Source: a virus
Lineage: Duplodnaviria; Heunggongvirae; Uroviricota; Caudoviricetes
Length of the DNA stretch: 64,000 nt
Direction: 5' to 3' (one strand)
Virus record (IMG/VR): IMGVR_UViG_3300044557_000151
Coordinates: 59,723-123,722 of that record
The notes under the pieces were generated by a model. The model had not been told where the DNA came from, did no database searches, and saw only the letters and a program-made list of their open reading frames with translations. Numbering within the stretch: position 1 is the stretch's first letter; every line of letters starts with the position of its first letter. A program made the translations under genes and the position numbers. This document shows positions 5,448 to 61,331 of this stretch, in pieces.

Positions 5448-6509
5448 ATGACTAAATCAATTTCAGAAATCTATCGGGTTTGGCTTGATGGACAATCATC
5501 AGAGGAAACGGCAAAGGTTTACCGCAACTATGTTAACAAGTTCTGCTCCTATGTTTTTGACAAGACTCCAGAACAGTTGTCTGAAGACGATATTTCTTCA
5601 GACAACTTCTATCCGGGTCTTGTCCAAGATAAGTTTATTAATCGTTTACGCGATGAAGATGTGCAAGATTCAAGCATTCGTAATTATATGAACGCCGTGT
5701 CATCTTTCATGGATGCACTGGAATCAAACCGGGTTTCTTCCGAAGCAGACTTCCTATATATCAAGAAAAACGTACTAAACAAAAAGAGCCTGAAAAAAGA
5801 TGGTGGTCATGTCTCAATGATCTCGCGGAATGATCTTGCAGCGTTTGAGGATTTCTTGAGGAATCGGAAGTATCGTAGTAAGGCAGAAAACGTTGGCCTT
5901 AAGTATGCAGGCGTCGTGGACTTCATGTTCACCTTTGCAACTCGTGTTTCAGCTACATTCAATATCAAATGGTCAGATATTAAGGATATCACTGATATCA
6001 AAGGGAACACTGACAAATGTGCATATGTTCATGATAAGGGCAAGGGATCTGGTAGTCGGGCTAATCAAAAGGTAATTGCGCCAGACTACTATGCCAAGAT
6101 GCGTGAATTATACTTCACTGGCGACGAATCAGACACCATATTCCATGAATTAACTCAGGACACATTTACGCGAATGATGAAGGAGTTCTCTGAAAAAACC
6201 GGTCGGGATATGACTCCTCACTCAATTAAAGTTGGGGCGGTTAGCTGGTTGTACGAATTAACCCACGACATTGTCCTTTGCCAGCAATTTGCGGATCATG
6301 AAGATATTGAAACTACCCAACGTTATATCCGTCTAAGTGGTGCCAATCGTAGTAAGGGTACTTATATCATGTCTGAGGGTGTTAACGTATCAGATATTAA
6401 TGATATCTCACTTGAAGAGATTGCAGCAATTGTTAAGAGTGACCCCGTATTGGCATTCAACGTATTGCGAGAATACCGCGAAGCATCACACAAAGACCAA
6501 ATTGCCTAG
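5448..6509 (+). CDS. tyrosine recombinase/integrase-like protein
   Basis: N-terminal SAM-like core-binding region. C-terminal TPHSIKVGAVSWLYELTHDIVLCQQFADHEDIETTQRYIRL fits the integrase box II pattern HxxR...LGH...TxxYxH including the catalytic Tyr. Confidence 0.6.
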   Translation: MTKSISEIYRVWLDGQSSEETAKVYRNYVNKFCSYVFDKTPEQLSEDDISSDNFYPGLVQDKFINRLRDEDVQDSSIRNYMNAVSSFMDALESNRVSSEADFLYIKKNVLNKKSLKKDGGHVSMISRNDLAAFEDFLRNRKYRSKAENVGLKYAGVVDFMFTFATRVSATFNIKWSDIKDITDIKGNTDKCAYVHDKGKGSGSRANQKVIAPDYYAKMRELYFTGDESDTIFHELTQDTFTRMMKEFSEKTGRDMTPHSIKVGAVSWLYELTHDIVLCQQFADHEDIETTQRYIRLSGANRSKGTYIMSEGVNVSDINDISLEEIAAIVKSDPVLAFNVLREYREASHKDQIA

Positions 6510-6621: not shown

Positions 6622-7884
6622 ATGGTTGATCTGAAACTATATAAATATAACCAGAAAACTGCTTTTCCCAATGCGGATAGTATTTTTACTGCAAGAAGGT
6701 TATTAAGTGGATTATTTGAAGAATATCGTATTGATAATTTAATAAACGAATTTGAATCTGAGTTCCCAAAACTATCTTTCGAGGAGAAGGCTAAGCTTTG
6801 TCAGAAGTTTTCTGACTTTAATCTTCCATCATTTAACAGGGGTGCTTCGATTAGTTTTGCCCGTGCAGACGAGTTCGTTACGCGGGCAAATGTAAGTACG
6901 TTTTACGCATATGATAATACACTTAAGAAAGCGTTATTGTCTTTCTGCTATATTGATAATGACCAAGGAATCGCTCAGGCATCTCGGGCAAACAATCTTC
7001 TTCGAATTGCAATTCCTTACGAGAAAAAAGTAAACAAAACAATTTTCCAATGGGACAAATCCGAGTTCGAGTCCTATATCAGAGGAGTTCGCGAAGAATA
7101 TACTGACGTTATTACGTTCCAACAGGTCATGGTCACTCTATCACAGTTAATTGATGGGGCTAGGAAAGTTAGCAACGTCATTGTCGCGCCTTATGTGCTA
7201 CACGATATTGCTAAGGAATCCCAGCCGATTGTGAGCGAAATTTATCCAACCTTGAGTGACTTACATGAAGTCGCATATAGAATGGATGACCCACAAGCGT
7301 CTGCAATGGTAATCTTATGCTATTTAGGCGTAAAAATTAGCAGGAATTCAGAGTCTGACGAAATGCTCAGCCTAAAGAAGTCTGATCTTGATGGGAATGT
7401 GTTAACAATTTCTGGTAATGCGCCACGCAAAATCAAACTTGATAATCGAAGTGCAAACATCGTTAGAGCAGCAATTAGAACTAAATTCGAAATATTTGAT
7501 TCCGCTTCCGGGTCTCAACGGAAAATGTACTATGTGAACAGTGATCGAATTTTCCGGCCACTTGATACCAACCGAACAACTGAGCTGACTTGGGCAGGTA
7601 TGTCAAATCGAGTTCGGAAGTTTGCTAATGCGTATAAGGATTCATTCAACACGACCCAACTAATGAATGTTCGACGTTTTGAAACGGCAGGGAAAATGAA
7701 TAGTGTCCACACAATCCTCTCTGAAGAAGGAGTTGGAGATGATGAAATGTTTGAGACCTGGGACAGTCTCAAAGTATTGGACGATGCGTTAATGAAAACA
7801 GCAAATCGTTTTGGGCAAGACGCAATTAAAGCAATTTCTCGTATGCGTGTAAGATATCGGGAATATCTTAAATTAAAAAAATAA
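6622..7884 (+). CDS. divergent tyrosine-recombinase-like protein
   Basis: 420 aa. The segment ILCYLGVKISRNSES...LKKSDLD...ISGNAPRKIKLDN resembles the Arg-I region and strand of the integrase catalytic domain. The remaining catalytic residues are unclear. Confidence 0.35.
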   Translation: MVDLKLYKYNQKTAFPNADSIFTARRLLSGLFEEYRIDNLINEFESEFPKLSFEEKAKLCQKFSDFNLPSFNRGASISFARADEFVTRANVSTFYAYDNTLKKALLSFCYIDNDQGIAQASRANNLLRIAIPYEKKVNKTIFQWDKSEFESYIRGVREEYTDVITFQQVMVTLSQLIDGARKVSNVIVAPYVLHDIAKESQPIVSEIYPTLSDLHEVAYRMDDPQASAMVILCYLGVKISRNSESDEMLSLKKSDLDGNVLTISGNAPRKIKLDNRSANIVRAAIRTKFEIFDSASGSQRKMYYVNSDRIFRPLDTNRTTELTWAGMSNRVRKFANAYKDSFNTTQLMNVRRFETAGKMNSVHTILSEEGVGDDEMFETWDSLKVLDDALMKTANRFGQDAIKAISRMRVRYREYLKLKK

Positions 7885-8413: not shown

Positions 8414-8625
8414 TGACCACCGATCAACTAGATGAAGAGTTCTCAGAACTTGAAAGTGTTGTCCGATTATTTAAGATTGAATCAGAAATCGCGTTCAATG
8501 CGGAGTCCTTTAGTAAGATGATGCAACATGTTACTGACTTCCTTAAGCATGTGATGAACTCTGATGAACCAGAGGATATCTCAACCACGCGTCTGAGAAT
8601 GGTTAGTGAAATTTTAAAAATTTAG
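8413..8625 (+). CDS. hypothetical protein
   Basis: ORF track 70 aa. The ATGA start/stop overlap with the preceding gene suggests translational coupling. Confidence 0.4.
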   Translation: MTTDQLDEEFSELESVVRLFKIESEIAFNAESFSKMMQHVTDFLKHVMNSDEPEDISTTRLRMVSEILKI

Positions 8626-8645
8626 CCTTCGGGCTATTTTTAAAA
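8615..8645 (+). terminator. rho-independent terminator
   Basis: Hairpin TAGCC-TTCG-GGCTA followed by TTTTTAAAATTT, overlapping the stop codon of the 8413 gene. Confidence 0.5.
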
Positions 8646-8655
8646 TTTATCAGTC

Positions 8656-8671
8656 AAACACTATTGTGTTT
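8656..8671 (+). promoter_or_regulatory. copy of the operator palindrome (AAACACTATTGTGTTT)
   Basis: One mismatch from the recurring AAACACTAATGTGTTT. Sits just upstream of the 3D-domain gene, with no clear -10 element. Confidence 0.35.
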
Positions 8672-16065: not shown

Positions 16066-16096
16066 TTATATATTTATAAGAAGAGGAGGTTAAAGT

Positions 16097-16780: not shown

Positions 16781-16798
16781 TGAATTGCATTCGCTTTT

Positions 16799-17344: not shown

Positions 17345-17348
17345 GAGT

Positions 17349-21247: not shown

Positions 21248-21431
21248 AAATGAGAAAGAACCACAATTTATTGCTGCGTTGAATAAGAGCGAATTACACA
21301 GTCCAGACTTCAATCAATATGTCGCGGCAGTTACTGAAAAGTTTGGGAAGCAAATTTATGTTAAGATCGATAAAATTGAGTATGCGGTAACACCTCAAGC
21401 GAACGGTTGGTTGCTATATGACAAACACTAA
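21239..21431 (+). CDS. hypothetical small protein
   Basis: Frame of ORF 21183..21431. ATG at 21239. Overlaps the dnaE start. Confidence 0.3.
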
Positions 21432-26579: not shown

Positions 26580-27731
26580 ATGATAAATATTGTTTTAAAA
26601 GGCATTAAACTAAGAATATACCCTAGCAAAGAGCAACAGCTAAGTATAAAGCTTAACTTTGGATATAACCGATTTGTTTGGAATCAGATGCTGGGTATGT
26701 TACAAGAAAGATATGCTAATAACCCTAAGCTATCTTTTCCTAGCGCCTTTACTTTAAATAACTTGTTACCAACAATGAAGATAGAATATTCTTGGCTTAA
26801 CGATGCTGAAAGTCGTAGCTTACAAATAACCTGTAAAAACTTAGTTGATGCTTACAAGAAGTTCTTTAAGACCCATAAGGGGTTTCCTAAGTTTAAATCA
26901 AAGAAGTATCCTAAGCAAAGCTACCAAACAAATTCTACAATAAAGCTAAAGGCCAACGAAGTTAAGTTTCCGAAATTAGGCTATATGAAGTTTAAAGGTA
27001 GTAGCAAAAAACTAAATGAGATTACTAAGATTAAGCTAGGAACTATTAAACTTACACCTACTGGTAAATACTATCTTGTACTGATTGCAGAGTGTGAAAA
27101 CCAAGCACTCCCTAAATCAGGAAATCAAGTAGGTATTGATATGGGGTTAGCTGATTTGATGATTACTAGTGACGGTGTAAAGTATCCTACTTTAAGATTT
27201 GACAAGATACTAGCTAAGAAAAAACGTTACTGGGAAAAGCGTTTAGCTCGTAGACGACTTCAAGCTCAAAAAGAGATTGCTTGGGATAAGCATAATAAGG
27301 TATTAAATCCTAGGGAACTTTCCAACTTTAAAAACTATCAGAAAGCAAAGCTAATGGTTGCTAAGTATTCAGAAAAAATAGCTAACCAGCGTAAAAACTA
27401 CCTTCATATGCTTTCAAAACAGCTTGTATCACAATATGATGTGATTAAGATAGAAGATTTGAAAACCAAGAATCTTCTTAAGAATCATAAGTTATCTAGA
27501 GCAATAGCTAATGCAAGTTGGAAAGAACTTAGAAGACAACTAGAGTACAAGTGCTTATGGTATGGGAAACAGTTAGTCACTGTGAACCCTAGAAAAACCT
27601 CACAAATATGTTCTAGTTGTGGCTATGATGACGGTAAGCATACCTTAGATATTAGAGAGTGGACATGTCCCAAGTGTGGTGTTCACCACGACAGGGACAT
27701 TAACGCGGCTATCAATATCTTAAATGCTTAA
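26580..27731 (+). CDS. tnpB: TnpB RNA-guided endonuclease
   Basis: N-terminal KLRIYPSKEQ...FGYNRFVWNQ. RuvC-I GIDMG and RuvC-II IEDLKTK. C-terminal CSSCG...CPKCG zinc finger followed by RuvC-III DRDINAAINIL. Confidence 0.9.
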   Translation: MINIVLKGIKLRIYPSKEQQLSIKLNFGYNRFVWNQMLGMLQERYANNPKLSFPSAFTLNNLLPTMKIEYSWLNDAESRSLQITCKNLVDAYKKFFKTHKGFPKFKSKKYPKQSYQTNSTIKLKANEVKFPKLGYMKFKGSSKKLNEITKIKLGTIKLTPTGKYYLVLIAECENQALPKSGNQVGIDMGLADLMITSDGVKYPTLRFDKILAKKKRYWEKRLARRRLQAQKEIAWDKHNKVLNPRELSNFKNYQKAKLMVAKYSEKIANQRKNYLHMLSKQLVSQYDVIKIEDLKTKNLLKNHKLSRAIANASWKELRRQLEYKCLWYGKQLVTVNPRKTSQICSSCGYDDGKHTLDIREWTCPKCGVHHDRDINAAINILNA

Positions 27732-28973: not shown

Positions 28974-29282
28974 GTGAGTACATCAAGTATGCCAAGCACA
29001 CAAACTGGGATTATGGAATTAGCTGATGCGTATTTGCGCGAACGCTATCGTTTAAAGAGTCTGCACAAAAAGCCAAGTGATTTGAACATGTTCCAGTGGA
29101 CGCGCAAATGCCTATGCGTTACTCAAAAACAAATGGCGGACATATTGAATGTCTCTGTGGCCTCTCTCAAGGCTTATGAGTATGGGAGCCGAAATCCAGG
29201 GGAAGACGCATGGAAACGTCTCTCGGACGTCACCCACATGTCAGTTGCGGATTTATTAGAACTGGAAAACAAGAATCGGTAA
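28974..29282 (+). CDS. XRE-family helix-turn-helix protein
   Basis: VTQKQMADILNVSVASLKAYEYGSRNP is a canonical HTH_XRE segment. Lies 30 bp upstream of the second tnpB. Confidence 0.6.
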   Translation: MSTSSMPSTQTGIMELADAYLRERYRLKSLHKKPSDLNMFQWTRKCLCVTQKQMADILNVSVASLKAYEYGSRNPGEDAWKRLSDVTHMSVADLLELENKNR

Positions 29283-29311: not shown

Positions 29312-30448
29312 GTGGATACCTATCAAGCATACAAAGTCCGTATCTATCCCACTCAATTACAAGCTGATATGATTATGCAATTTATCGGAAATAGTCGATT
29401 CGTGTATAACCAAATGCTTGCCATGCAGGCTGATCGTTACAAGAACGGCGGAAGGTACGTTGGATACATGGCAATGTCCAACCTAGTCAAACCACTCAAA
29501 CAAGAGTACGCATTCCTCAAGCTGTCACCATCTCAATCGCTACAACAGGCGTGTGCGGATTTGAACGCCGCTTTCCAGAACTTCTTTGCTAAGCGCGCAG
29601 ACTATCCACGGTTCCACTCCCGAAAAGGTGCGAAGCAATCTATGCGGGTCATGCAGGCTTGTTCCATCATCGCTTCGGGAGTCAAGCTGCCAAAGCTCGG
29701 TATCATGCGTTTCCGTTATGGATATAGTCTCGACCCGTCACTTAAAATTCGGCAAGTGACCGTCTCGTACACCTCATCTCACAAGTTTTACGCCAGCATC
29801 TTAGTTAAATGCGAAAAACAAGCATTGTCTAAAACTGGTGAACAAGTGGGATTGGATATGGGCGTGGCTGACTTAGCTATCCAGAGCAATGGCAAGAAAA
29901 TTCCAACTCAGAAGCATGACGAGCTGGAACACTCTCTTCACATTTGGCAACGTAAGTTGGCTCGCCGTAGGGAGTTAGCCAAGGCGGAAATCGCTAAATC
30001 CAAGCACTATGACCACACTGAATTGACGCTTGATGACTTCTCCAATTACAACAAGGCGAAAATAATGGTTGCTAAGTTGCATGAGAAGATTGCTAACAGG
30101 CGGAAGGATTACCTACACAAGACGACAACCAAATTGGTGCGGGAATATGACCTTATCGCTATGGAAGATTTGAGGACCAAGAATATGGTCAAGAATCACC
30201 ATTTGGCGAAGTCAATTACCAATCAAGGCTGGAACATGTTTAAAACCATGCTTCAGTACAAGTGCGAGTGGTATGGGAAGACAATAGTGGTGGTAAACCC
30301 GCGGAATACCAGTCGCGTATGTTCTGATTGTGGTGTGGATAGCGGCAAGAAACCACTAGATGTGCGGGAATGGACGTGTCCAGGATGTGGTACATGGCAT
30401 GATCGTGATGTGAATGCAGCACAAAACATTTTGAAATTAGCAGTGTAA
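29312..30448 (+). CDS. tnpB: TnpB RNA-guided endonuclease
   Basis: KVRIYPTQLQ...GNSRFVYNQ. RuvC-I GLDMG, RuvC-II MEDLRTK. Zinc finger CSDCG...CPGCG. RuvC-III DRDVNAAQNIL. Confidence 0.9.
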   Translation: MDTYQAYKVRIYPTQLQADMIMQFIGNSRFVYNQMLAMQADRYKNGGRYVGYMAMSNLVKPLKQEYAFLKLSPSQSLQQACADLNAAFQNFFAKRADYPRFHSRKGAKQSMRVMQACSIIASGVKLPKLGIMRFRYGYSLDPSLKIRQVTVSYTSSHKFYASILVKCEKQALSKTGEQVGLDMGVADLAIQSNGKKIPTQKHDELEHSLHIWQRKLARRRELAKAEIAKSKHYDHTELTLDDFSNYNKAKIMVAKLHEKIANRRKDYLHKTTTKLVREYDLIAMEDLRTKNMVKNHHLAKSITNQGWNMFKTMLQYKCEWYGKTIVVVNPRNTSRVCSDCGVDSGKKPLDVREWTCPGCGTWHDRDVNAAQNILKLAV

Positions 30449-30568: not shown

Positions 30569-30616
30569 TTCCGCTACGTTGGGTATGACGTCAAAGATCA
30601 TTATAACGCTTTGGGC

Positions 30617-30808
30617 GAAGTAGACGGTTACGTCATCTCATGGAATAACGAAAAGGGACGGTAGATAATGAAATTTGAACCATATCAACATGTACAACGT
30701 ATGGGCGTTGACGAAGTAGACGGTTACGTCATCTCATGGAATAACGAAAAGGGACGGTAGATAATGAAATTTGAACCATATCAACATGTACAACGTATGG
30801 GCGTTGAC
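30617..30808 (+). repeat. perfect 96-bp tandem duplication spanning RBS and start of the RNA ligase gene
   Basis: 30617..30712 equals 30713..30808 exactly. A 12-bp junction GAAGTAGACGGT recurs at 30809. Copy 1 creates a decoy 30-codon ORF (30668..30760). Confidence 0.9.
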
Positions 30809-31696
30809 GAAGTAGACGGTATCCTGGATGGTAATGTTGTCATTCAACCGAAGATTGATGGAACAAACGCATCAATCTGGTTAGACCAAAATGGAACCTT
30901 GGGATTTGGAAGTCGTCGGCGAAAGCTGACTTTAGAAAAGGACAACGCGGGGTTCATGACCTTCTTCACCTCTGAAATGGCTCAAGGCGACGCCGCCAAA
31001 TTACAAGAGTATCTCGAAGATAACCCAGATTACACCATTTACGGCGAATGGTTAGTCCAACATGTCGTTCATTACAAAGATAACGTTTACCATCAACTGT
31101 TCATTTTCGACGTCTACGACAATGCGAATGAACGATATCTCAACATCGAAGAATATCAAGATGACCTTCAAGAGTTGGGCATGTCGTATGTGGTTGTGAT
31201 CCCGGCGATTTACAAAGGTAAAGCAACAAACGAGATGATTGTAAAGCTCGCTAAGGATAACCACTATCTTCTGGAAAAAGACCAGGTCGGTGAAGGCGTT
31301 GTAGTTAAACGATATGACTTCGTGAATCGATATGGGCGTACCACTTGGGGTAAATACGTGCTTGCAGATTTCAAGAAGCGCAAACATGATGGACGTAATT
31401 ACTCTCAGGATGTTGATGGTATTGGGAACAGTTATGCAGAACCTATTGCTAAATTCATTACACCAGCGTTTGTCGAAAAAGAGTTCATTAAGTTTAAAGA
31501 GCGATTGGATCACCCGTTTAGTGGAAAAGATATTCCGGCATTGCTAGGGACCGTGTATCACGAATTTGTTTCAGAAGAGACGTGGCATTTCTTGAAAGAA
31601 CTTGGGAAGAGTCCGGTTGTCAACTTTGGAACTGTACAGCGCGAATCGTACAAACAAATTAAGCGGTGTTTGCCTGTCTTATTCGGCCAAGCATAG
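30764..31696 (+). CDS. ATP-dependent RNA ligase-like nucleotidyltransferase
   Basis: Motif I KIDGTNA (ligase/capping-enzyme lysine adenylyltransferase). 310 aa. RtcB lies nearby. Confidence 0.5.
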   Translation: MKFEPYQHVQRMGVDEVDGILDGNVVIQPKIDGTNASIWLDQNGTLGFGSRRRKLTLEKDNAGFMTFFTSEMAQGDAAKLQEYLEDNPDYTIYGEWLVQHVVHYKDNVYHQLFIFDVYDNANERYLNIEEYQDDLQELGMSYVVVIPAIYKGKATNEMIVKLAKDNHYLLEKDQVGEGVVVKRYDFVNRYGRTTWGKYVLADFKKRKHDGRNYSQDVDGIGNSYAEPIAKFITPAFVEKEFIKFKERLDHPFSGKDIPALLGTVYHEFVSEETWHFLKELGKSPVVNFGTVQRESYKQIKRCLPVLFGQA

Positions 31697-31703
31697 GAGA
31701 TTT

Positions 31704-32066
31704 ATGAAAATTAAATTAATTGATGTAACAACCGAAGAGGAATACATGGAACTTGGCACATGCGAACTCTGCTTCAGCTATGGCGAAGAAGAGATCCCAA
31801 CCTTTCATTTCGAGAAAGACGACGGAACCAAGTTTGATGTTGAGGCTTTCTATATTGAATGGGGTTGCCCGTATTCTCTCTATGTTGACAACGCAATTAC
31901 CTTTGCTGGGTATCTTGCAAGTTTAGACTTCGACCCTGACTTCGACAAACAAATCAATGCTAAAGGTTATAACGAGTGGGACGATTACGCGTGGCTTAGT
32001 AATTTGCTCCGCGATTATGCCGAGTCCACATTCTGCAAAGATCCAGAATACGATCCATCGTGGTAA
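31704..32066 (+). CDS. hypothetical protein
   Basis: ATG 31704 follows AGGAGA (ORF track frame began at 31602). Confidence 0.45.
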   Translation: MKIKLIDVTTEEEYMELGTCELCFSYGEEEIPTFHFEKDDGTKFDVEAFYIEWGCPYSLYVDNAITFAGYLASLDFDPDFDKQINAKGYNEWDDYAWLSNLLRDYAESTFCKDPEYDPSW

Positions 32067-32089
32067 AAGTACGATTTTAGGAGGTTAAC

Positions 32090-32395
32090 ATGATTACACC
32101 AAGAGGGTTAATGGACAAGGTTAAGGTTCGAAAATTAGAACTTGATAACCAATTTGAGCAAACGTATCTGGATCAAAAAGATGCAATGGAATTATTGCTA
32201 GAAGAACTGTTAGTTGATGCCATTGCTCGTAATGGTAGAGGTGTATGGATTGATGAATACGGTAATAGTTCATTGTATAACTTCCTTGTAAAATACTCCG
32301 ATCGCATTGATGGATATTCGTTTGAAATCGACGACGTAACATGTGATATGTATGTAACGCCAATCTTGGACGACGATTCGTGGAATGAATATTAA
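32090..32395 (+). CDS. hypothetical protein
   Basis: ORF track 101 aa. RBS AGGAGG upstream. Confidence 0.45.
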   Translation: MITPRGLMDKVKVRKLELDNQFEQTYLDQKDAMELLLEELLVDAIARNGRGVWIDEYGNSSLYNFLVKYSDRIDGYSFEIDDVTCDMYVTPILDDDSWNEY

Positions 32396-32412
32396 CTGAA
32401 AGCTGGTACGTC

Positions 32413-33603
32413 TTGGAAATCAAAGGTAAATACGGCGTTGCAAAAGTAATGACCGAGAATATTGAGCAAACCGCTCAAGAACAGTTGAAAACGTTACTGG
32501 ATCAGCCATACATGAAGGGCAACGATGTTCGAATCATGCCGGATGTTCACGCTGGTAAAGGCGCAACAATTGGCACTAGCATCAAGTTAAACAACGACTT
32601 CATTTGCCCAAATACGGTTTCGGTCGACCTGGGCTGTGGAATGCACGTATTCAAGCTTGACATCGATCATGTAGACTTTGAAAAGTTGGATCAGTTAATC
32701 AATAACGAAGTACCATCTGGTTTCAACGTTTACGAAAATCCGATTCGTAAATTCAGACAAATCAATTATACTCGCATTACTCATCTGAAAAACTACGATC
32801 ACATCTTGAACAGTATTGGAACTCTTGGTGGTGGGAACCATTTCATTGAAATCGATCAGGATACCGATGGTGTTTACTACCTGGTAATTCATTCAGGCTC
32901 ACGCAACTTGGGCGTTCAAGTTGCCAACTATTATCAACGCTTAGCAATTTCGAATCAGTCAAAGAATGTTGAGTTACGCGACGCTGTGATTGCAGCATGT
33001 AAAGAGGTTGGACAAGAGCGTCAGATTGAGGGTTTGTTGAATACGTTGAAACAAACGAATCCAATCATTCCAGACGAGTTGGCTCCTGTCAGCGGCCAAG
33101 ATGCTGAAGACTACTTATACGACGTATCGATTGCACAAGAGTTTGCAGCGTTGAATCGTTTGACGATGGCCGAAACAATTATCTACGGCATGAATTGGCA
33201 AGTTGATTCAGACTTTGATTCAATTCACAACTACATTGATATCGATAATCGAATTATTCGCAAAGGTGCTACCGATGCCTCGTTGGGGAAACAATTGGTT
33301 ATCCCATTGAATATGCGTGATGGCTCGATTATTGCAACTGGCATGGGTAACTCTGACTGGAACTACTCAGCTCCACATGGTGCAGGTCGCGTAATGTCTC
33401 GCAAGAAGGCGTTTGAAACAGTTGCCATGAACGACTTTACCAAATCGATGGAAGGTATCTACTCGACTTCTGTTGTCAAAGAAACGATTGATGAATCACC
33501 GTTCGCATACAAGCCTGCACAAGAGATTATTGATGCAATCAGTGAGAAGACTGTCCACATCGATAAGGTGATTAAACCGGTTTACAACTACAAGGCACAT
33601 TAA
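32413..33603 (+). CDS. rtcB: RtcB-family RNA 3'-phosphate ligase
   Basis: MPDVHAGKGATIG, GGGNHFIEID and APHGAGR motifs. Start uncertain: TTG at 32413 or ATG at 32449. Confidence 0.85.
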   Translation: MEIKGKYGVAKVMTENIEQTAQEQLKTLLDQPYMKGNDVRIMPDVHAGKGATIGTSIKLNNDFICPNTVSVDLGCGMHVFKLDIDHVDFEKLDQLINNEVPSGFNVYENPIRKFRQINYTRITHLKNYDHILNSIGTLGGGNHFIEIDQDTDGVYYLVIHSGSRNLGVQVANYYQRLAISNQSKNVELRDAVIAACKEVGQERQIEGLLNTLKQTNPIIPDELAPVSGQDAEDYLYDVSIAQEFAALNRLTMAETIIYGMNWQVDSDFDSIHNYIDIDNRIIRKGATDASLGKQLVIPLNMRDGSIIATGMGNSDWNYSAPHGAGRVMSRKKAFETVAMNDFTKSMEGIYSTSVVKETIDESPFAYKPAQEIIDAISEKTVHIDKVIKPVYNYKAH

Positions 33604-39092: not shown

Positions 39093-39493
39093 AACGAGAG
39101 ATTAAGTTCAGAGTTTGGAACAACCGGGATAAGAAGATGCTTAACGTTGCTGGAGCTGAATTTATCAGTGGCCGAGAAATTATGTCAGCAGGCACTCTCC
39201 TACCCGATGAAGTGGTTTATGGGAAGAATAATGGCGAATATTTTTCGCCTATGATGCAATACACCGGGCTATTCGATAAGAACGGACGGGAAATCTACGA
39301 GGGCGACATTTTAGATATTGGACTCCGAGATCAGGACGGCAAGCCGGTAGTGGCCCCGGTAAGCTACGAAGCATATCTCGCTGGGTATGTGCTTGACAAT
39401 AGAGGATACGGCATCTGGCAACGGCTAGGTGGTGATTGCGAGGTCGTCGGCAATATCTTTGAAAATCCGGAGTTGCTGGAGGATGAGGAATGA
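39089..39493 (+). CDS. YopX-family phage protein
   Basis: N-terminus MKREIKFRVWNNRDKKM and the central MQYTGLFDKNGREIYEGDILD match the YopX signature. Confidence 0.65.
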   Translation: MKREIKFRVWNNRDKKMLNVAGAEFISGREIMSAGTLLPDEVVYGKNNGEYFSPMMQYTGLFDKNGREIYEGDILDIGLRDQDGKPVVAPVSYEAYLAGYVLDNRGYGIWQRLGGDCEVVGNIFENPELLEDEE

Positions 39494-39804
39494 GCGAAAC
39501 CAAATATGATGTATTTGTTCGTCTAATGAGTAATTACCTTGTAGAGAAGATTCAGCTTGATAGTATAACGCGAGACCCCCACCACATCGATATTCAACGT
39601 GAAGCAGATTCGTGGTTGGAAGAATACAACCATGCGGTTGATAACGCGGAACGTCAGGTTGGATGCAAGGAATGTCGCCGAGGTGGAAGCTTAGACGTGG
39701 CAATCAAAATGGTTGAAAAGCTTACTTCGCAACTAATGTCTGCAATCAAATTCTGTCCATATTGCGGACGAAGAATCAACATAAAACTTTCTGACTTATA
39801 CTAG
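39490..39804 (+). CDS. small zinc-ribbon protein (paralog family)
   Basis: MSETKYDVF... CKECRRGG ... FCPYCGRRIN. Stop codon overlaps the -35 element of the next promoter. Confidence 0.45.
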   Translation: MSETKYDVFVRLMSNYLVEKIQLDSITRDPHHIDIQREADSWLEEYNHAVDNAERQVGCKECRRGGSLDVAIKMVEKLTSQLMSAIKFCPYCGRRINIKLSDLY

Positions 39805-39887
39805 ACAAACACTAATGTGTTTGGTAATATAATAAGAGTAGTCAAACACTAATGTGTTTTTAAGGCCGACTGCATCGGCCTTTTCTT
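39802..39887 (+). promoter_or_regulatory. promoter-operator unit with leader hairpin and intrinsic terminator
   Basis: TAGACA-N17-TAATAT at 39802..39830. RNA-level palindrome AAACACTAATGTGTTT at 39844..39859. Terminator hairpin AAGGCCGA-CTGCA-TCGGCCTT + TTTTCTT at 39862..39887. Confidence 0.55.
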
Positions 39888-39934
39888 GTGGATTACATAC
39901 AATTCAAAATAGCATCAGGGGGACAGGCACTAGC

Positions 39935-40462
39935 ATGAAGTCTTACATCGTTTTGGATACAGAGTTTAACAATAAAACAAACCGAATCACGCAGTTAGCA
40001 GCAATCAAAATTTCAAACGGCGTATTCATCAAGAGTCAATTTAATAGATACATTCCATCTATGGATAAGGAAGATCAATTCAAAATCTGGGCGGGTGGGA
40101 ACATGCGTTATTCAGATTATGGCAAGTTGCCACGACCAACACAAACAGTTCGAGATTTCATCGAATGGGTCGGGACAACTCCCGGGACACCGCTTGTAGG
40201 CTGGGGAGTTCATGGCGATTCAGAACGAGTAAAAGGGCTATTCAAAATGTGCTCGCATACAATCCTGAAAGGTTGGCACTTCTTGGATGCGGCAAAACCT
40301 ATTTGTACCGCTTGCGAATTAGATTACACGATTCCGCTACAATCAGCCGCTAATTTTGCTGGTGTTCCGAAGAACCATGCGCATAACGCATTGGATGATT
40401 GCCTACGTACATTTGGGTTAATTAAGACATTAGAACAACGCATGGGAAAACCCGTAATCTAG
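39935..40462 (+). CDS. DnaQ-like 3'-5' exonuclease (DEDDh)
   Basis: Exo I motif YIVLDTEFN and Exo III motif HNALDDCLRT. ATG 39935 after AGGGGGACAGG (track began 39854). Confidence 0.7.
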   Translation: MKSYIVLDTEFNNKTNRITQLAAIKISNGVFIKSQFNRYIPSMDKEDQFKIWAGGNMRYSDYGKLPRPTQTVRDFIEWVGTTPGTPLVGWGVHGDSERVKGLFKMCSHTILKGWHFLDAAKPICTACELDYTIPLQSAANFAGVPKNHAHNALDDCLRTFGLIKTLEQRMGKPVI

Positions 40463-48818: not shown

Positions 48819-48947
48819 AAGGGAGATTTTATGAAGGATCAGATTTTTGACGCAACAAGCATTAAGGTCAATCCACTAGACGGATACGTAGTAACTGTTA
48901 AGGGAGAGCCACTACACATTTTAGGAGACGTGAAAATTATGAAACAA

Positions 48948-49415
48948 AACACGGTATATATGGCGGAATCTTGGTTTAATGATGAACAAAACGCATTACG
49001 TGAGGCCGGTATGGAGGCGATGAAGCAAAACCAAACAATTGACTGGGAAAACAGCTTCCGCCCAATTGAACATCAATACAAGGGTTGGAAGATTACAGAT
49101 CATCCCGACATGCTCAATAATTCCGAATGGCAGTTAGCGACATTTCGTTCAGACTGTCATTCTGTTGAGGCAATGGACATCACGATTGCGTTGTACGATC
49201 CGAAGATTGAGAACTCAGATCCTGGCGTTTTGTGGGAACTCGGCTATGCTTATGGCTTAAACAAACCAACATTTTTGGTGTTGCCAGATGATTGTGATAC
49301 TCCATTAAACCTAATGCCCGCGTTAGGTGCAACTCGCGTATTACATCTTGCAGACTTGGAGACTTTTGATTTTAACAACAAAGCATTTACAGTATTTACC
49401 GGGGAGGTCTACTAA
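48948..49415 (+). CDS. nucleoside 2-deoxyribosyltransferase
   Basis: YMAESWF...ENSFRPIEHQYKGWKITDHP...WELGYAYGLNKPTFLVLPDD...NLMPALG...FDFNNKAFTVFTGEVY aligns end to end with Lactobacillus NDT. ATG 48948 after GGAGACG. The alternative start at 48831 adds 39 aa. Confidence 0.8.
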   Translation, partial: NTVYMAESWFNDEQNALREAGMEAMKQNQTIDWENSFRPIEHQYKGWKITDHPDMLNNSEWQLATFRSDCHSVEAMDITIALYDPKIENSDPGVLWELGYAYGLNKPTFLVLPDDCDTPLNLMPALGATRVLHLADLETFDFNNKAFTVFTGEVY

Positions 49416-49417
49416 TT

Positions 49418-49900
49418 ATGCAACAACGAAATGTAATGTTATCAGCATCATGGTTCTCACCAGAGGAAGCCGAATTCCTCGAAAAGGTGAAAGCCTCACT
49501 TCATGCCAACGAAACGATTTCAGATTTCAGTTGGTGTTTGGATAAAGATGGACAGTGGGGAGAGACGGATGTTACTCTGCATCCTGAAGTCGCGAGTGAT
49601 TTGTTGTGGCGCTCTCGTACCTTCCTCAATGATGTAACATCTGTAAAAAACGCAGAAGTAATTGTGCTTATGATGGTTCCTGGTCACGAAGATACCGGAG
49701 CAGTTTCCGAGGCAAGTATGGCTTACGCTTGGGGTAAACCCGTAGTCATGGTCCTGCCAGACGCTGATTATGATAACAAGACCACCCCAATTAACTTAAT
49801 GCCATCCATGTTGGCTGACGTCGTAATCCCATATCGTGAACTCGCCACATATAACTTCGGTCACTTACGCAATCGTCCTTACGACGGTCCTTGCTTCTAG
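49418..49900 (+). CDS. nucleoside 2-deoxyribosyltransferase paralog
   Basis: SASWFSPEE...VSEASMAYAWGKPVVMVLPDADYDNKTTPINLMPSM preserves the NDT catalytic Glu region and the PINLM motif. Confidence 0.7.
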   Translation: MQQRNVMLSASWFSPEEAEFLEKVKASLHANETISDFSWCLDKDGQWGETDVTLHPEVASDLLWRSRTFLNDVTSVKNAEVIVLMMVPGHEDTGAVSEASMAYAWGKPVVMVLPDADYDNKTTPINLMPSMLADVVIPYRELATYNFGHLRNRPYDGPCF

Positions 49901-50461: not shown

Positions 50462-50558
50462 TAGACAAACACTAATGTGTTTAGTATACTAATCAGTGTG
50501 ATATAGACAAACACTAATGTGTTTTGGCTGACGTGAAATCACGCCAGTCTTTTTGTTT
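50462..50558 (+). promoter_or_regulatory. promoter-operator unit with leader hairpin and intrinsic terminator
   Basis: TAGACA-N17-TATACT at 50462..50490. Second TAGACAAACACTAATGTGTTTT at 50503..50524. Terminator GGCTGACGTG-AAAT-CACGCCAGTC + TTTTTGTTT at 50526..50558. Confidence 0.55.
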
Positions 50559-50597: not shown

Positions 50598-50987
50598 ATG
50601 AAAGACAAGGTGTTACGTATGCTTGACGAAGCACCTGAACGAACTGTAGAAAGATTGAAAAAGGCGGCTTTTGATTGGAGTGAATACGACCTGACAATCA
50701 TTTCCAATGAGATAGGAAATGAGTTATCTACTGTACGAGGGGCCATTCGACAATACTTGGACGATCCGTTGGTCAAATCAATGAATCCAAAGCGATCTGA
50801 ATCATCGTTGGATAATAAAACAATCAACAATTTAGTCGAAGCAACTCAATCTCAGAAAATTGATATTGAGGCATTATCCGATGTGATGTTTGGTCTGGCA
50901 GCGGAATTCGCCGCAGGGCAAAAAACTGCAAGTATGACACAACTTCAAATGCGAAAGTTCTTACTTAACCTATTCAAACAGGGGTAA
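50598..50987 (+). CDS. hypothetical protein
   Basis: Frame of ORF 50553 (TTG). First ATG at 50598. Start uncertain. Confidence 0.4.
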   Translation: MKDKVLRMLDEAPERTVERLKKAAFDWSEYDLTIISNEIGNELSTVRGAIRQYLDDPLVKSMNPKRSESSLDNKTINNLVEATQSQKIDIEALSDVMFGLAAEFAAGQKTASMTQLQMRKFLLNLFKQG

Positions 50988-54462: not shown

Positions 54463-54575
54463 TTTTATCATGTGCAGGAAAGAAGACACGTTCTTTAAAG
54501 GACGTGATGAATTGCCTTCTTTTTAGCGCCAAAGGCGCTACACATGGTACGAAATCGTGTGGTATAATAAGCTAT

Positions 54576-55019
54576 ATGAAAGACACTAATAGACTTACGT
54601 ATGGTAGAACTTCTGTCTACAATCTAAATTACCACATCATCTGGGGAACTAAATACCGTAACCGGGTTCTGAAAGGAAATGTTGAGGTTACGCTCAAGCA
54701 AATTATGTATGAAATCGCAGAGCAATATGGTTTTAGCATCGACCACATGGAAATTGGTCAGGATGACCATATTCACTTGCTGGTGAGTGCACCGCCAAAA
54801 CTATCAGTTACCAATATTGTGCGATGGCTAAAAGGCATTTCAGCGCGCCAGCTATTCGTCGCGTGTCCGGAGCTACAGCGAAGTTACTGGAAACATGCAG
54901 GACGCCACTTATGGTCGCCCAGTTATTACGTAGAAAGTATTGGCACAACTAATCAGAATGCAGTCGCTAAGTACATTGATGACCAAAGGTTGAAGGAGGT
55001 GAAGATTAATGACAATTAA
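54576..55019 (+). CDS. tnpA: IS200-like Y1 (HUH) transposase TnpA
   Basis: YHIIWGTKYR and HIHLLVSAPP (HuH) motifs plus a downstream Tyr. ATG 54576 (track frame from 54504). Confidence 0.85.
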   Translation: MKDTNRLTYGRTSVYNLNYHIIWGTKYRNRVLKGNVEVTLKQIMYEIAEQYGFSIDHMEIGQDDHIHLLVSAPPKLSVTNIVRWLKGISARQLFVACPELQRSYWKHAGRHLWSPSYYVESIGTTNQNAVAKYIDDQRLKEVKINDN

Positions 55020-56148
55020 AGCTTATAAACTTAGGATCTACCCAAATGAGGCTCAAAAGCTTCAAATGGAAAAGAACTTTGGTATGTGTCGATTTGTATG
55101 GAACCAGCTTCTCGCTATGCAGAATGCGCGCTACAAGAACGGTGGTGACTACGTCAACGAGTTTGGCATGAATTACCTATTTAAGCCCCTGAAAAAAGAA
55201 TACCAATGGCTTAAAGAAGCAGACTCAACCAGCTTAATAGCTGTGAGCCACAATCTGCACTTAGCATTTAAAAACTTTTTCAAAAAGCATGAAGGGTATC
55301 CGAAGTTTAAGACTAAGCGGTTCACCCGCCCTGCATATCGTTCTAACGCAGTTAACCACAATATCGTTCTTATGGACGAGCAACATATTCGGCTGCCAAA
55401 ACTTGGATCAATAGCATTTCGATCTGGACAGTTACCAAGGGGTAAAGTTAAAACTGCAACAGTTACTAGAAGTCCCGCTGGTAAATACTATGTACTTGTG
55501 ACTACGGAAGTCGAAATAGAGAAATGGAACCCAACAGGCGCTAGTGTCGGCTTGGATATGGGAGTCGCTGACCTTGTAATCACTAGTGATGGTATGAAGT
55601 TTGCGACCAAACGGTTTGATAAAGCTCTTGCCAAAAAGAAACACTACTGGGAGAAACGATTGGCCCGTAGGCGCGCCTTAGCTCAAAAAGAAATTGCCTG
55701 GGATAAACACCTCAAGGTAGAATCGCCACGTCAGTTATCTGACTTCAAGAATTACATGAAGGCTAAAGAAATGGTGGCGAAATACAGTGAAAAAGTGTCT
55801 AATCAACGTCACGATTACCTTCAAAAGATCAGTACTGAGCTCGTTTCAGAATATGATGTGATTAAATTAGAAGACCTGAAAACCAAGGGCCTGATGAAGA
55901 ATCACAAACTGTCACGAGCAATTGCAAATCAGTCGTGGCGTGAATTACGTCTGATGTTGGAATACAAAGCAGCTTGGTATGGTAAGAGTATCATTGCCGT
56001 GTCTCCGTATAAGACCTCACAACGTTGTTCAGTATGTGGCTACGATGATGGCAAACATGAGCTAGATATCCGCGAATGGACTTGCCCACAATGCCATACT
56101 CATCACGATCGTGACATAAATGCCGCAAAGAACATTCTAGTCGCATAA
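55009..56148 (+). CDS. tnpB: TnpB RNA-guided endonuclease
   Basis: KLRIYPNEAQ...FGMCRFVWNQ. RuvC-I GLDMG, RuvC-II LEDLKTK. Zinc finger CSVCG...CPQCH. RuvC-III DRDINAAKNIL. Confidence 0.9.
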   Translation: MTIKAYKLRIYPNEAQKLQMEKNFGMCRFVWNQLLAMQNARYKNGGDYVNEFGMNYLFKPLKKEYQWLKEADSTSLIAVSHNLHLAFKNFFKKHEGYPKFKTKRFTRPAYRSNAVNHNIVLMDEQHIRLPKLGSIAFRSGQLPRGKVKTATVTRSPAGKYYVLVTTEVEIEKWNPTGASVGLDMGVADLVITSDGMKFATKRFDKALAKKKHYWEKRLARRRALAQKEIAWDKHLKVESPRQLSDFKNYMKAKEMVAKYSEKVSNQRHDYLQKISTELVSEYDVIKLEDLKTKGLMKNHKLSRAIANQSWRELRLMLEYKAAWYGKSIIAVSPYKTSQRCSVCGYDDGKHELDIREWTCPQCHTHHDRDINAAKNILVA

Positions 56149-56356: not shown

Positions 56357-56388
56357 TTGTTTAACAAGATGTTAAAGGGGAGATTAGT

Positions 56389-56880
56389 ATCACAGAAACG
56401 ATTCGACCTGATTATTACAAACAGGGCGCAAGTGAGACTTGGGACGACATCAAAGCATGGGGACGTACACCATACTTAGGTTTTATCCTTGGGAACACAC
56501 GAAAGTACATTGATCGATATTGGGGAAAGAATGGAGTTAAGGATTTACGTGAACTTCAAACATATCTAGCTCACGTCATTCAGGACCCTGATACTGTTAA
56601 ACCAGCAAAAGTTGCCGACATCCGCGCTAACGTGCAAAAAATTGTTAGCGATGCGGTTGAAGCGTTTGTAGATTCGGCTTGTGAAGATTCATCACAACTG
56701 ACCACCATTCAATTAGTGGTTACTGGATTGATCTCATACGAAGAAGACCTGATTAAGAAGGCTGACGAGACCAACGATGCTGGCGTTACTTTAAAGGAAG
56801 CAGCAGAAGCTGCTACCATGTTGGATGACACCGTCAAGGAGGCTACAACTGTTGAGCAAACGATTAACACTGAAGCGTGA
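56389..56880 (+). CDS. DUF3310-like phage protein, probable non-ATG (ATC) start
   Basis: The open frame from 56365 encodes ...RPDYYKQG..ETWDDIKAWG..GNTRKYIDRYWGK... upstream of the first canonical start (GTG 56632). SD AAAGGGGAG sits 6 nt before ATC 56389. Confidence 0.45.
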   Translation: MTETIRPDYYKQGASETWDDIKAWGRTPYLGFILGNTRKYIDRYWGKNGVKDLRELQTYLAHVIQDPDTVKPAKVADIRANVQKIVSDAVEAFVDSACEDSSQLTTIQLVVTGLISYEEDLIKKADETNDAGVTLKEAAEAATMLDDTVKEATTVEQTINTEA

Positions 56881-60566: not shown

Positions 60567-61331
60567 ATGAACAACTTGGAAAACACTAACACAACTAAAT
60601 TTACTGGTACTTATTTTCAATGGATCAAGCATCAATTAACCGGATGGGACACTTTCCCATGGGCATTGTGGGGATTCGGTATCGGATTTGAATTAGCCCT
60701 GCTGCTCACCAATAAGATTACACCATTAGCTATCATTTCATTCATCGGCGTATTCTTCGGTATGTGGTGTACAGTCGCAATGTCGTCAGGCGGTACTGAC
60801 GCTAACGGTAATCGAGTAATCTCTCACTCGATTAATGGATTGTTGGGCGCAATCAGTGTAATCGCCTATGTCTATGTTAACTGGACCGCAGGGCACTGGT
60901 TCAGTGTCCTGGATCAATTTGCCTACTTCTTCTTAATCGATTTTGGTTTGATGATTAACTGGCGCACATGGGGACATGGCGAAAACGGCGGCAAGATGAA
61001 TGAACTCTCCAAAAAAGGCTGGGCAATCGTTACTGCTATTATCCTGATTGGTTGGTTTGCCTTCTACCATCTTGGCGTAGTATTAAACGACAGTAATCCA
61101 ATTTGGGATTCCCTCACGTTCGCTATTGGCGCTACGGCAAGCTGGTTGTGCTTCAAGCGTTACACATCGACATACACATTATGGATTTGTTCAAATATTG
61201 TAAATTTGGTTCTTTGGTTTACTGCCCTGCAAGCAGGGTATAGTCAATCAGCACTCGTTATGCTTGTTATGAACGTATTCTATATGGCTACTGCGATCTA
61301 CGGTAAGTTTGTGTGGAAGGTGGAAAAGTAG
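60567..61331 (+). CDS. pnuC: PnuC-family nucleoside/NMN transporter
   Basis: 254 aa, about 7 TM helices, Trp-rich. NWTAGHWFSVLDQF and the loop layout are typical of PnuC. Confidence 0.6.
   Translation: MNNLENTNTTKFTGTYFQWIKHQLTGWDTFPWALWGFGIGFELALLLTNKITPLAIISFIGVFFGMWCTVAMSSGGTDANGNRVISHSINGLLGAISVIAYVYVNWTAGHWFSVLDQFAYFFLIDFGLMINWRTWGHGENGGKMNELSKKGWAIVTAIILIGWFAFYHLGVVLNDSNPIWDSLTFAIGATASWLCFKRYTSTYTLWICSNIVNLVLWFTALQAGYSQSALVMLVMNVFYMATAIYGKFVWKVEK

Follow-up and report, generated by a model that had tools for sequence, protein, structure and literature searches.

Repeated palindromes beside two terminators of a distantly SPbeta-like phage as candidate operators of an MrpR-like repressor

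The master repressor of the Bacillus phage SPbeta, MrpR/YopR, recognizes a DNA site known as SPBRE, at which binding and repression have been established by ChAP-seq, EMSA and lacZ fusions (Kohm et al., 2023; PMC10516654). SPbeta carries 11 copies of SPBRE. Five of its SPBRE promoters (yonP, yorE, yorM, yorZ and yosX) read TAGACAAAnAnAAAnAATATGTAT ATAAT, that is, a TAGACA -35, the element filling a 17-bp spacer, and a TATAAT -10; copies at yonX and yopV lie instead in leaders, just ahead of the ribosome-binding site. The same phage family offers a second example of a palindromic site involved in gene control: AimR of phi3T/SPbeta binds palindromic DNA beside an intrinsic terminator and prevents termination in a distance-dependent manner (Zamora-Caballero et al., 2024; PMC10769878). 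This site lies downstream of the terminator, between the promoter and the regulated gene. Its half-sites are widely spaced. In phage lambda, the Q binding element is found between the -35 and the -10 of pR', with tR' following, and the LoaP and lambda N systems use a small hairpin that the leader carries ahead of terminators. The stoperators of mycobacteriophage L5 and other cluster A phages, reportedly described by Brown et al. in 1997, are 13-bp asymmetric sites at which a bound HTH repressor, gp71, halts the elongating polymerase.

We analyzed a 64,000-nucleotide stretch of DNA from a tailed phage (hereafter the window), with two sites of interest on the + strand. The original prediction was that a promoter, a palindrome and a terminator precede a gene in this order, twice, and this is borne out at 39802-39889 and 50462-50558: both sites have a near-consensus sigma-A promoter, a palindrome, a terminator 1-2 nt further on, and then the next gene. 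At the first site, promoter P4 (39802..39830) has a TAGACA -35 (39802-39807), a 17-bp spacer and an extended -10, TGG-TAATAT (39825-39830), from which transcription would start at about 39836-39837. The ORF upstream (39490-39804) ends in a TAG codon that falls within the -35 of P4. The leader palindrome, O2 (AAACACTAATGTGTTT, 39844..39859), covers about +8 to +23, and the terminator T1 (39862..39889) begins 2 nt past it, with a stem-loop at 39862-39882 followed by TTCTTGT. This stem-loop, AAGGCCGA-CTGCA-TCGGCCTT, has an 8-bp stem with five G-C pairs and a 5-nt loop (-11.7 kcal/mol). The first gene past T1 (39935..40462, with its ATG at 39935) encodes a DEDD/RNase_T-type exonuclease of 175 aa. 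At the second site, promoter P5 (50462..50490) consists of TAGACA (50462-50467), a 17-bp spacer and TATACT (50485-50490); its O2 (50509..50524) lies at about +13 to +28, and T2 (50526..50558) begins 1 nt past O2, with a stem-loop at 50526-50549, a stem of 10 positions including one A.C mismatch (-10.3 kcal/mol), and then TTTTTGTTT. The gene that follows (50598..50987, with its ATG at 50598) encodes a protein of 129 aa with no Pfam family. The palindrome had been assigned to the leader as a single copy per site. The leader copy is indeed present, but each site has a second copy, O1, inside the promoter spacer (39807-39822 in P4 and 50467-50482 in P5), 37 bp and 42 bp from O2, respectively. The RNAs running from promoter to terminator are predicted to be about 50 and 60 nt long, in agreement with the earlier estimate. 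For any transcript initiated at these promoters, the dilemma formulated there, to stop as a short RNA or to read through, is inescapable.

The palindrome AAACACTAATGTGTTT, a perfect 6-4-6 inverted repeat of 16 bp, is present in the window in 15 copies at two mismatches or fewer, all on the + strand, where shuffled sequences lead us to expect 0.09. Six of the 15 are spacer copies, one in each of the six promoters; these are upstream of the start site, so that they can be transcribed only by read-through. Five of the promoters have a second copy downstream, giving a cassette of about 60 bp made of TAGACA, 17 bp and TAATAT or TATACT, with O1 in the spacer and O2 37 or 42 bp downstream. The claim that the element is modular also stands, since the cassette is found again, with no terminator attached, at 15756, 26402 and 56299, and in a single-copy version at 6546. 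Cassette P2 (15756..15818; O1 at 15761, O2 at 15803, spacing 42) drives a tRNA/tmRNA cluster from a leader devoid of terminator. Cassette P3 (26402..26464; O1 at 26407, O2 at 26449, spacing 42) is followed by a TnpB insertion sequence, and in a relative (L022) a ribosome-binding site and an ATG come directly after O2. Cassette P6 (56299..56356; O1 at 56304, O2 at 56341, spacing 37) is upstream of a DUF3310 gene and a RecD2-like helicase. The single-copy promoter, P1 (6546..6574), has a TTGACA, a 17-bp spacer containing the palindrome as AAACACTAATGCGTTT, and a TAGTAT. Also, where the mrpR-like operon borders on the replication module (8625..8671), a weak terminator (8625-8641) is followed after 14 nt by an orphan palindrome (8656-8671) and a ribosome-binding site. 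The two O1-O2 spacings, 37 and 42 bp, are half a helical turn apart, which argues against phased cooperative binding. Two other roles for the palindrome were discarded: that of a 5' stabilizer hairpin, given that the stem is weak, stands 7-12 nt from the 5' end and recurs as a motif in untranscribed spacers, and that of a promoter for a phage-specific sigma factor or RNA polymerase, given that the leader copies have no -10.

The design of these promoters is that of the five SPBRE promoters of SPbeta, with an identical -35 and spacer layout. Like SPBRE, the window palindrome is repeated, intergenic and on one strand relative to transcription (15 copies in one orientation, six of them in spacers of TAGACA-type promoters), it has copies in leaders, and its left half (GACAAACACTAAT) is near-identical to that of the SPbeta element (GACAAATACAAAT). 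The right half is different, the window element being a perfect palindrome where SPBRE is imperfect, and the presence of two copies 37 or 42 bp apart is the rule in the window and the exception in SPbeta. Neither the SPBRE copies of SPbeta nor the cassettes of Liquorilactobacillus hordei have an intrinsic terminator behind them.

The window also encodes a YopP-like and a putative MrpR-like protein. In the window, the YopP-like tyrosine recombinase (353 aa, 5448..6509, + strand) and the MrpR/YopR-like protein (420 aa, 6622..7884, + strand) are in the same order as yopP and yopR in SPbeta; there, yopQ stands between the two genes, whereas here they are adjacent. The MrpR-like gene is directly downstream of P1, and its product is our candidate repressor of the palindromes. 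Its similarity to SPbeta YopR reaches an E value of 6e-7 in a BLASTP search of a 20-protein database, at 24-25% identity, and a probability of 76% in hhalign. It matches a syntenic L. hordei protein carrying PF22823 (BLASTP E 3e-14), and PF22823 also figures in the precomputed annotation of a protein 99% identical to it (P0124). On the other side of the balance, hmmscan left the protein without a Pfam family at a cutoff as loose as E<=10, MrpR was missed in the PDB by both phmmer and profile searches, a tblastn search against phages for MrpR membership gave no match, and the AlphaFold single-sequence model has a pLDDT of 36. Taken together, these comparisons are divided, and a kinship with MrpR would be a remote one (about 24% identity); binding of the protein to the window palindromes is predicted by homology and analogy.

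Our preferred reading is that the palindromes are DNA operators of a phage repressor, with the MrpR/YopR-like protein as the likeliest binder, that T1 and T2 are ordinary terminators, and that the P4 and P5 sites are where one long early operon gives way to the next in a temperate phage, distantly SPbeta-like, with a Lacticaseibacillus-type host. We give it, as a whole, a probability of about 0.55. It proceeds by analogy: the palindromes are read as operators because they share the design of the five SPbeta SPBRE promoters, and SPBRE is the DNA site of MrpR. Repressor bound at O1 would occlude the core promoter, and at O2, as at the orphan copies that have no promoter, it would block an RNA polymerase that is starting or reading through, in a manner akin to the leader SPBRE copies of SPbeta and to the L5 stoperators. 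The latter resemble the window palindromes in being many short sites in one orientation, at an early promoter and at promoter-less intergenic positions, but share no sequence or protein homology with the window. Most transcripts from P4 and P5 would then stop at T1 and T2, yielding RNAs of about 50-60 nt as by-products, and the downstream genes would be expressed from the fraction that reads through, together with read-through out of the upstream operon. In the lysogen, the terminator would act as a second lock behind a repressed promoter, and a dedicated RNA-hairpin antiterminator would be needless. Two aspects of the junctions count against this model, as it gives no reason for placing the promoter before the terminator, nor for both terminators, unrelated as they are, abutting O2 within 1-2 nt.

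T1 and T2 have no sequence in common. Each is predicted to be an intrinsic terminator from its G+C-rich stem-loop followed by a T tract between ORFs, and their strength is similar to that of other terminators in the window. Between 26.4 and 60.4 kb we found no other strong intergenic terminator on the + strand, so the P3 unit (13.4 kb) would have its 3' end at T1 and the P4 unit (10.7 kb) at T2; with each terminator just downstream of the next promoter, they would act on the transcripts of that promoter too. A promoter-operator-terminator order is unusual at operon junctions, where the terminator comes here after the promoter instead of before it. By a rough Poisson estimate, two terminators starting within 5 nt of a palindrome would arise by chance with a probability of about 3e-4 in the window as a whole and of about 2.5e-3 in its intergenic DNA alone; three terminators of the window have a palindrome 15 nt away or less. 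What little variation the relatives show preserves or strengthens the terminators: in L014/L015 the T1 stem is kept and the T tract is altered to TTTTTATGT, and in L017 a T->C change turns a G.U pair of T2 into G-C (-13.0 kcal/mol). The terminator hairpin is part of the minimum-free-energy structure of both promoter-initiated and read-through RNAs. We rejected a riboswitch-like attenuator with alternative folds, as there is no competing fold and the terminator hairpin forms equally in both types of RNA, and also the idea of T1 as a recombinase core site, its 8-bp arms and 5-bp spacer being too short.

The palindromes could well be operators and the terminators ordinary, and yet the binder be another protein. 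An XRE-type HTH protein (28974-29282), encoded within the P3 operon, has a Pfam HTH_3 domain and a weak likeness to YonR of SPbeta (E 1e-4, from a small database), and could take the place of the MrpR-like protein given that the window element departs from SPBRE in its perfect 6-4-6 symmetry, a feature typical of sites for HTH dimers. Nevertheless, copies strictly in one orientation, with a conserved 5' flank that is asymmetric (nAnnC), suit SPBRE-like recognition better than a symmetric dimer, the placement in the spacer is identical to that of MrpR-bound SPBRE promoters, and the position of P1 directly upstream of the MrpR-like gene is the one expected for autoregulation. We consider the YonR-like protein an unlikely binder, if the first in rank among the alternatives. 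Just behind it, and quite unlikely in our view, comes control of termination itself from a DNA site, as AimR or lambda Q exert it, in which palindrome and terminator would form one regulatory unit. This could take the form of a DNA-level switch, where termination at T1, T2 or 8625-8641 would depend on a protein sitting on the palindromes of promoter and leader; or of a domino-like process, in which polymerase coming from the upstream operon would displace the repressor from the next promoter before terminating, leading to a sequential de-repression of early operons. Either version would account for the promoter-before-terminator order and for both terminators being 1-2 nt past O2. The position of the Q element between the -35 and -10 of pR', with tR' next, and the three window terminators within 15 nt of a palindrome agree with it, and the AimR site of phi3T/SPbeta is a precedent from the same phage family for a palindrome beside a terminator between promoter and regulated gene, as seen here. 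Since AimR is a DNA-bound antiterminator in SPbeta phages, dedicated antitermination keeps a small share of the probability. However, the geometry is another one: the AimR site is downstream of its terminator and O2 is upstream of T1 and T2, and the AimR order is found at the 8625/8656 pair alone. Nor did we find an AimR-like or Q-like protein in the window, where BLASTP with SPbeta AimR and Pfam scans for AimR homologues gave no match, and near-consensus promoters with the site in their spacer fit repression, which is what MrpR does at SPBRE in SPbeta (PMC10516654).

At the RNA level, the palindrome had been proposed to play a boxB-like role in a nut/put-like antitermination system. In such a system, or a LoaP-like one, the O2 hairpin would bring a factor, encoded by phage or host, to RNA polymerase, and the modified enzyme would pass T1, T2 and later terminators, only 50-60-nt RNAs being made without the factor. 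The order of elements does resemble lambda pR'-qut-tR', where a constitutive promoter with a close terminator gives a short RNA (6S RNA) unless the polymerase is modified. In favor of such a system, a terminator comes 1-2 nt after a hairpin at two sites, with unrelated terminator sequences, and every copy of the palindrome is on the coding strand. Also, substitutions in transcribed copies are wobble-compatible or central (C4T, A3G, A5G and loop changes), so that stems retain G.U pairing, as opposed to the pair-breaking T12C of the two varying spacer copies; this pattern is a weak hint of RNA-level constraint. Against it, all six promoters have the same 16-mer in their spacer, where they do not transcribe it, in a placement that copies the SPBRE promoters, whose element is the DNA site of MrpR (PMC10516654), and an MrpR-like protein is encoded directly downstream of one of the six. 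The hairpin is weak (6 bp, -4.3 kcal/mol) and the equivalent elements barely fold, at -0.8 kcal/mol for SPBRE and 0 for the Liquorilactobacillus (L. hordei) element. No compensatory double changes were seen across the 15 copies or in relatives, nor any alternative anti-terminator fold, and no NusG, Q, N or other antiterminator Pfam family was detected among the approximately 90 window proteins scanned, many small ones of which have no family. Unlike in the lambda and HK022 systems, the motif is also present at promoters without a terminator (three of the five two-copy cassettes have none to overcome), and the window yielded neither a homologue of Q, N or put nor such an RNA family. Because of the spacer copies, the likeness to SPBRE, the MrpR-like gene, the poor folding and the lack of covariation and antiterminator, the RNA-hairpin mechanism finds no support in our data, and we regard it as improbable. 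The most doubtful of the alternatives is that the short two-hairpin transcripts are functional small RNAs, for instance decoys of RNA-binding proteins or nucleases, with the downstream genes driven from elsewhere. The strong promoter/terminator pairs do predict RNAs of about 50 and 60 nt sharing a 5' hairpin, with structure z-scores of -2.7 and -2.3. But the two RNAs share only the operator sequence, their terminators being unrelated, they offer almost no single-stranded seed region, and neither site has an Rfam family at threshold; moreover, we see no other promoter that could serve the following 10-kb gene blocks, and elsewhere the same cassette directly drives tRNAs and protein genes.

If the palindromes are operators of an MrpR-like repressor, whole-genome repression of the MrpR/SPBRE type, so far demonstrated in the Bacillus phage SPbeta only, would extend to phages of lactobacilli, and the window supplies a directly testable pair of new operator sequence and candidate repressor. 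The promoter-operator-terminator junctions provide a simple system for studying the balance between silencing in the lysogen and read-through in the lytic cycle, and allow one to ask whether DNA-bound proteins adjacent to terminators, of which AimR is an example, recur more broadly in this phage family. They also carry a warning for annotation, in that a perfect palindrome in a leader beside a terminator is not necessarily an RNA element.

As judged from its sequence, the window phage is a distant member of the SPbeta-like group. An exact-motif scan of viral contigs, a search of these contigs with the exonuclease and helicase proteins, and a search of the literature for the motif string gave no match, and a motif scan of reference genomes returned a single chance match in Vibrio. 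A metagenome scan yielded three true relatives (L016, L017 and L022), which are almost identical across the cassettes and hence give little covariation signal. Homologues of the exonuclease at 52% identity are found in unrelated small L. paracasei prophages that lack the cassette. Megablast against phages and plasmids gave only matches of 45-80 nt, to Lacticaseibacillus phages. The window encodes a YopX-domain protein, and the gene order of its replication module is that of yorG-yorI-yorK-yorL in SPbeta and that of L028 and L029, at identities of 24-42%. The closest relatives of the helicase (about 40% identity) are on contigs of 100-150 kb from lactobacilli and Bacillus.

Two sites of the window, both on the + strand, do carry the architecture described in the original prediction, with promoter, palindrome, terminator stem-loop and gene each located where they had been placed. 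At the first, a -35 hexamer TAGACA (39802-39807), a 17-bp spacer and an extended -10 TGG-TAATAT (39825-39830) precede a leader palindrome, AAACACTAATGTGTTT (39844-39859), the stem-loop AAGGCCGA/CTGCA/TCGGCCTT (39862-39882) followed by TTCTTGT, and a gene for a DEDD-type exonuclease (ATG at 39935). The second has TAGACA (50462-50467), 17 bp, TATACT (50485-50490), the palindrome (50509-50524), a stem-loop (50526-50549) followed by TTTTTGTTT, and a gene starting with ATG at 50598. From the inferred start sites, the predicted promoter-to-terminator RNAs would measure about 50 and 60 nt, respectively. Folding gives the two terminators, hereafter T1 and T2, hairpins of -11.7 and -10.3 kcal/mol, within the range of the window's remaining intergenic terminators (-10.3 to -20.2 kcal/mol), and the 16-nt palindrome alone -4.3 kcal/mol. 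The chance of two terminators starting at most 5 nt from a palindrome is roughly 3e-4 to 2.5e-3.

What had been overlooked is that each site contains two palindromes: one, O1, inside the promoter spacer, its first base being the last base of the -35 hexamer, and another, O2, in the leader. Allowing up to two mismatches, the window holds 15 copies of the 16-mer, all on the + strand (0.09 expected), and three mismatches added no convincing further copy. The C directly 5' of the motif is invariant in all 15 (consensus nAnnC) and has no matching G on the 3' side, making the element asymmetric. Six promoters share the spacer palindrome, five with both copies and one (6551) with a single copy. O1 and O2 lie 37 bp apart in the cassettes at 39807 and 56304, and 42 bp apart in those at 15761, 26407 and 50467. 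Since the five cassettes with two copies share 78-88% identity across roughly 60 bp, even at positions without obvious function, they constitute a repeated element. Four orphan copies, also on the + strand, have no promoter. Two are intragenic (9005 and 26201); another (8656) comes 14 nt 3' of a weak terminator, GCCTTCGGGC followed by TATTTTT, and is immediately 5' of a ribosome-binding site, terminator and palindrome together spanning 8625-8671. The last, a perfect copy at 21423 (region 21418-21438, ATGACAAACACTAATGTGTTT), begins within the DNA polymerase start codon, at its third base, and could be a repression or roadblock site for that gene.

This design has a counterpart in Bacillus phage SPbeta, where the master repressor MrpR (YopR) binds DNA at the repeated element SPBRE; ChAP-seq of MrpR gave ten peaks at SPBRE promoters, and binding and repression were confirmed by EMSA and lacZ fusions (PMC10516654). 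We located 11 SPBRE copies in NC_001884. Five of them (yonP, yorE, yorM, yorZ and yosX) read TAGACAAAnAnAAAnAATATGTAT ATAAT, so that, as in the window, an identical -35 hexamer is separated from a -10 by a 17-bp spacer that the element occupies; the left halves are nearly the same (GACAAATACAAAT in SPbeta versus GACAAACACTAAT here). Of the others, the yopV copy and the second at yonX sit in leaders just 5' of the ribosome-binding site, and the aimR copy and the first at yonX precede promoters. SPBRE orientation is uniform relative to transcription, the minus-strand yonP promoter included. The strand bias, the reason why the window motif resembled an RNA element, is also a property of a proven DNA operator. 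A distant Liquorilactobacillus hordei relative (CP049301.1, a 145-kb replicon, region 1-22262) has a repeated element of its own, AATAAACATAATGAAAG, with 13 copies in 22 kb on one strand and none on the opposite one; it overlaps the -35 of TTGACA promoters, elsewhere sits before ribosome-binding sites, and has an MrpR_C_cat gene adjacent. One-strand repeated operators thus seem general in this phage group. Hairpin formation is not conserved in this class of elements, as SPBRE folds at only -0.8 kcal/mol and its L. hordei counterpart forms no hairpin.

The cassette of operator and promoter is probably a diverged member of the SPBRE/MrpR type in a new host group, and the simplest account of the window palindromes is that they are putative SPBRE-like DNA operators. 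O1 would occlude a strong sigma-A promoter, and O2 and the orphan copies would block polymerase that escapes or reads through, like the leader SPBREs; the stoperators of mycobacteriophages are an analogue of such a block. One reservation is that the 37- and 42-bp spacings differ by half a helical turn. The candidate repressor is encoded at 6622-7884, next to a gene (5448-6509) matching SPbeta YopP (E 7e-10). In a 20-protein database the 6622-7884 product matches YopR/MrpR with 24% identity over 206 residues (E 6e-7), hhalign gives it a 76% probability against YopR, and PF22823 is listed for a database protein 99% identical to it. The syntenic L. hordei gene has the Pfam domain MrpR_C_cat, and the two proteins match with E 3e-14. 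On the other side, hmmscan assigned no family, a profile search of the PDB failed to recover MrpR, and no usable structure model was obtained. On these comparisons the protein is probably a remote MrpR homologue, and the position of the single-copy promoter (6551) directly 5' of its gene suggests autoregulation.

The main mechanism originally proposed, antitermination through an RNA hairpin of the nut/boxB, put or LoaP-like kind, found no support. Palindromes occur in promoter spacers, the design is homologous to that of SPBRE, the stem is weak, covariation is absent, with no compensatory double changes in the palindromes, and the 64-kb window, many of whose small proteins have no family, contains no recognisable antiterminator. 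The substitutions in transcribed copies are few and wobble-compatible or central, and two spacer copies have a pair-breaking T12C; this pattern, of six to eight events, is a weak hint that RNA pairing might matter. An alternative worth keeping, though of low probability, is that termination is controlled through a protein at a DNA site: AimR of phi3T and SPbeta binds a palindromic DNA site adjoining an intrinsic terminator and, depending on the distance between the two, keeps polymerase from terminating (PMC10769878). Three window terminators lie at most 15 nt from a palindrome. Only 8625/8656 has the AimR order, terminator first and DNA site second, and the window yielded no AimR homologue. 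That unit also divides the mrpR-like operon from the replication module. We assign a low probability to a single DNA-level switch built from palindrome and terminator, or to displacement of the repressor from the next promoter by read-through polymerase that then terminates. The short transcripts could be functional small RNAs, a possible but unsupported idea, as the operator sequence is all that the two share. Finally, an XRE-type HTH protein (28974-29282) would also suit as the binding protein, given the perfect 6-4-6 symmetry of the palindrome.

Under the operator reading, as under any model, transcripts from these two promoters (P4 at 39802 and P5 at 50462) must pass T1 and T2. The terminators are unrelated in sequence and start 2 and 1 nt after O2, so this abutting placement arose independently or was kept. 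Between 26.4 and 60.4 kb no other strong intergenic terminator was found on the + strand, and the upstream ORFs end at the -35 itself, the TAG stop at 39802-39804 being part of TAGACA. T1 and T2 are thus operon 3' ends: T1 ends the 13.4-kb operon of the preceding promoter (P3, 26402) and T2 the 10.7-kb operon of P4. What is unusual is that the promoter precedes the terminator; the reverse order is seen at 4651-4720 and 8625 and in the L. hordei relative, and in SPbeta no terminator follows an SPBRE promoter. These promoter-proximal terminators are an unusual variant. A cis-acting attenuator is unlikely, because in folding the terminator hairpin forms in the minimum-free-energy structure of promoter-initiated and read-through RNAs alike, with no competing structure. 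Relatives with 88-91% identity keep the promoter, two palindromes and both terminator stems, and their changes (a central T to C in O2, one T gained in the T tract, and, in T2, a G.U pair turned into G-C that gives a stronger hairpin, -13.0 instead of -10.3 kcal/mol) are consistent with selection for termination, though such relatives are too close for a real test. In the account we favour, the terminators would be operon boundaries that also attenuate the next promoter, keeping silencing tight in the lysogen and letting a fraction of transcription read through during lytic growth, with the RNAs of 50-60 nt as by-products.

The window genes are tightly packed on the + strand. They include a replication module (a Sak4-like AAA_24 protein, exonuclease, DnaB-like helicase, primase, PD-(D/E)XK nuclease and a 1097-aa DNA polymerase), thymidine kinase, RNA ligase, RtcB, a RecD2-like helicase and numerous small proteins, DUF1642 and YopX proteins among them. 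No close nucleotide relative was found among known phages or plasmids. Contigs of 100-150 kb from Liquorilactobacillus, Lactobacillus and Bacillus carry the best relatives of the helicase (about 40% identity), and tblastn also found such relatives in SPbeta-like phages; two of these contigs (L028, from L. hordei, and L029) share the gene order of 6622-15746. Accessory regions (1383-1751, 30764-33603, 48831-49900 and 60567-61331) encode a MazF/PemK-like toxin, RNA ligase and RtcB (tRNA repair), two nucleoside 2-deoxyribosyltransferase-family proteins and a PnuC-like NMN transporter, then a deoxynucleoside kinase. Directly downstream of the cassette at 15756 lie a tmRNA (18081-18436, tag AKQNDLVAA) and eight tRNA genes (15837-18564); ARAGORN gives the tRNA at 17348-17422 an odd anticodon loop. 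The DUF3310 domain (56404-56568, gene region 56383-56880) precedes the first canonical start codon (a GTG at 56632), and the gene apparently starts at ATT 56383 or ATC 56389, 3' of the ribosome-binding site GGGGAG; near 8700, a strong ribosome-binding site likewise precedes an ATT. Three TnpB (IS605 OrfB/Cas12f-like) genes (26580-27731, 29312-30448 and 54504-56148), one with an IS200 TnpA, each have a conserved right end (…ttcccagaagctcggtcattcatggccgagtagttcac) on their 3' side, near 27815, 30530 and 56250. In one relative (L022) a ribosome-binding site and ATG come directly after the P3 cassette, so in the window an insertion sequence separates the P3 leader from its gene. Just 3' of a TnpB right end, a perfect 89-nt direct duplication with a period of 96 nt (30616-30800) spans the beginning of the RNA ligase gene together with its ribosome-binding site.
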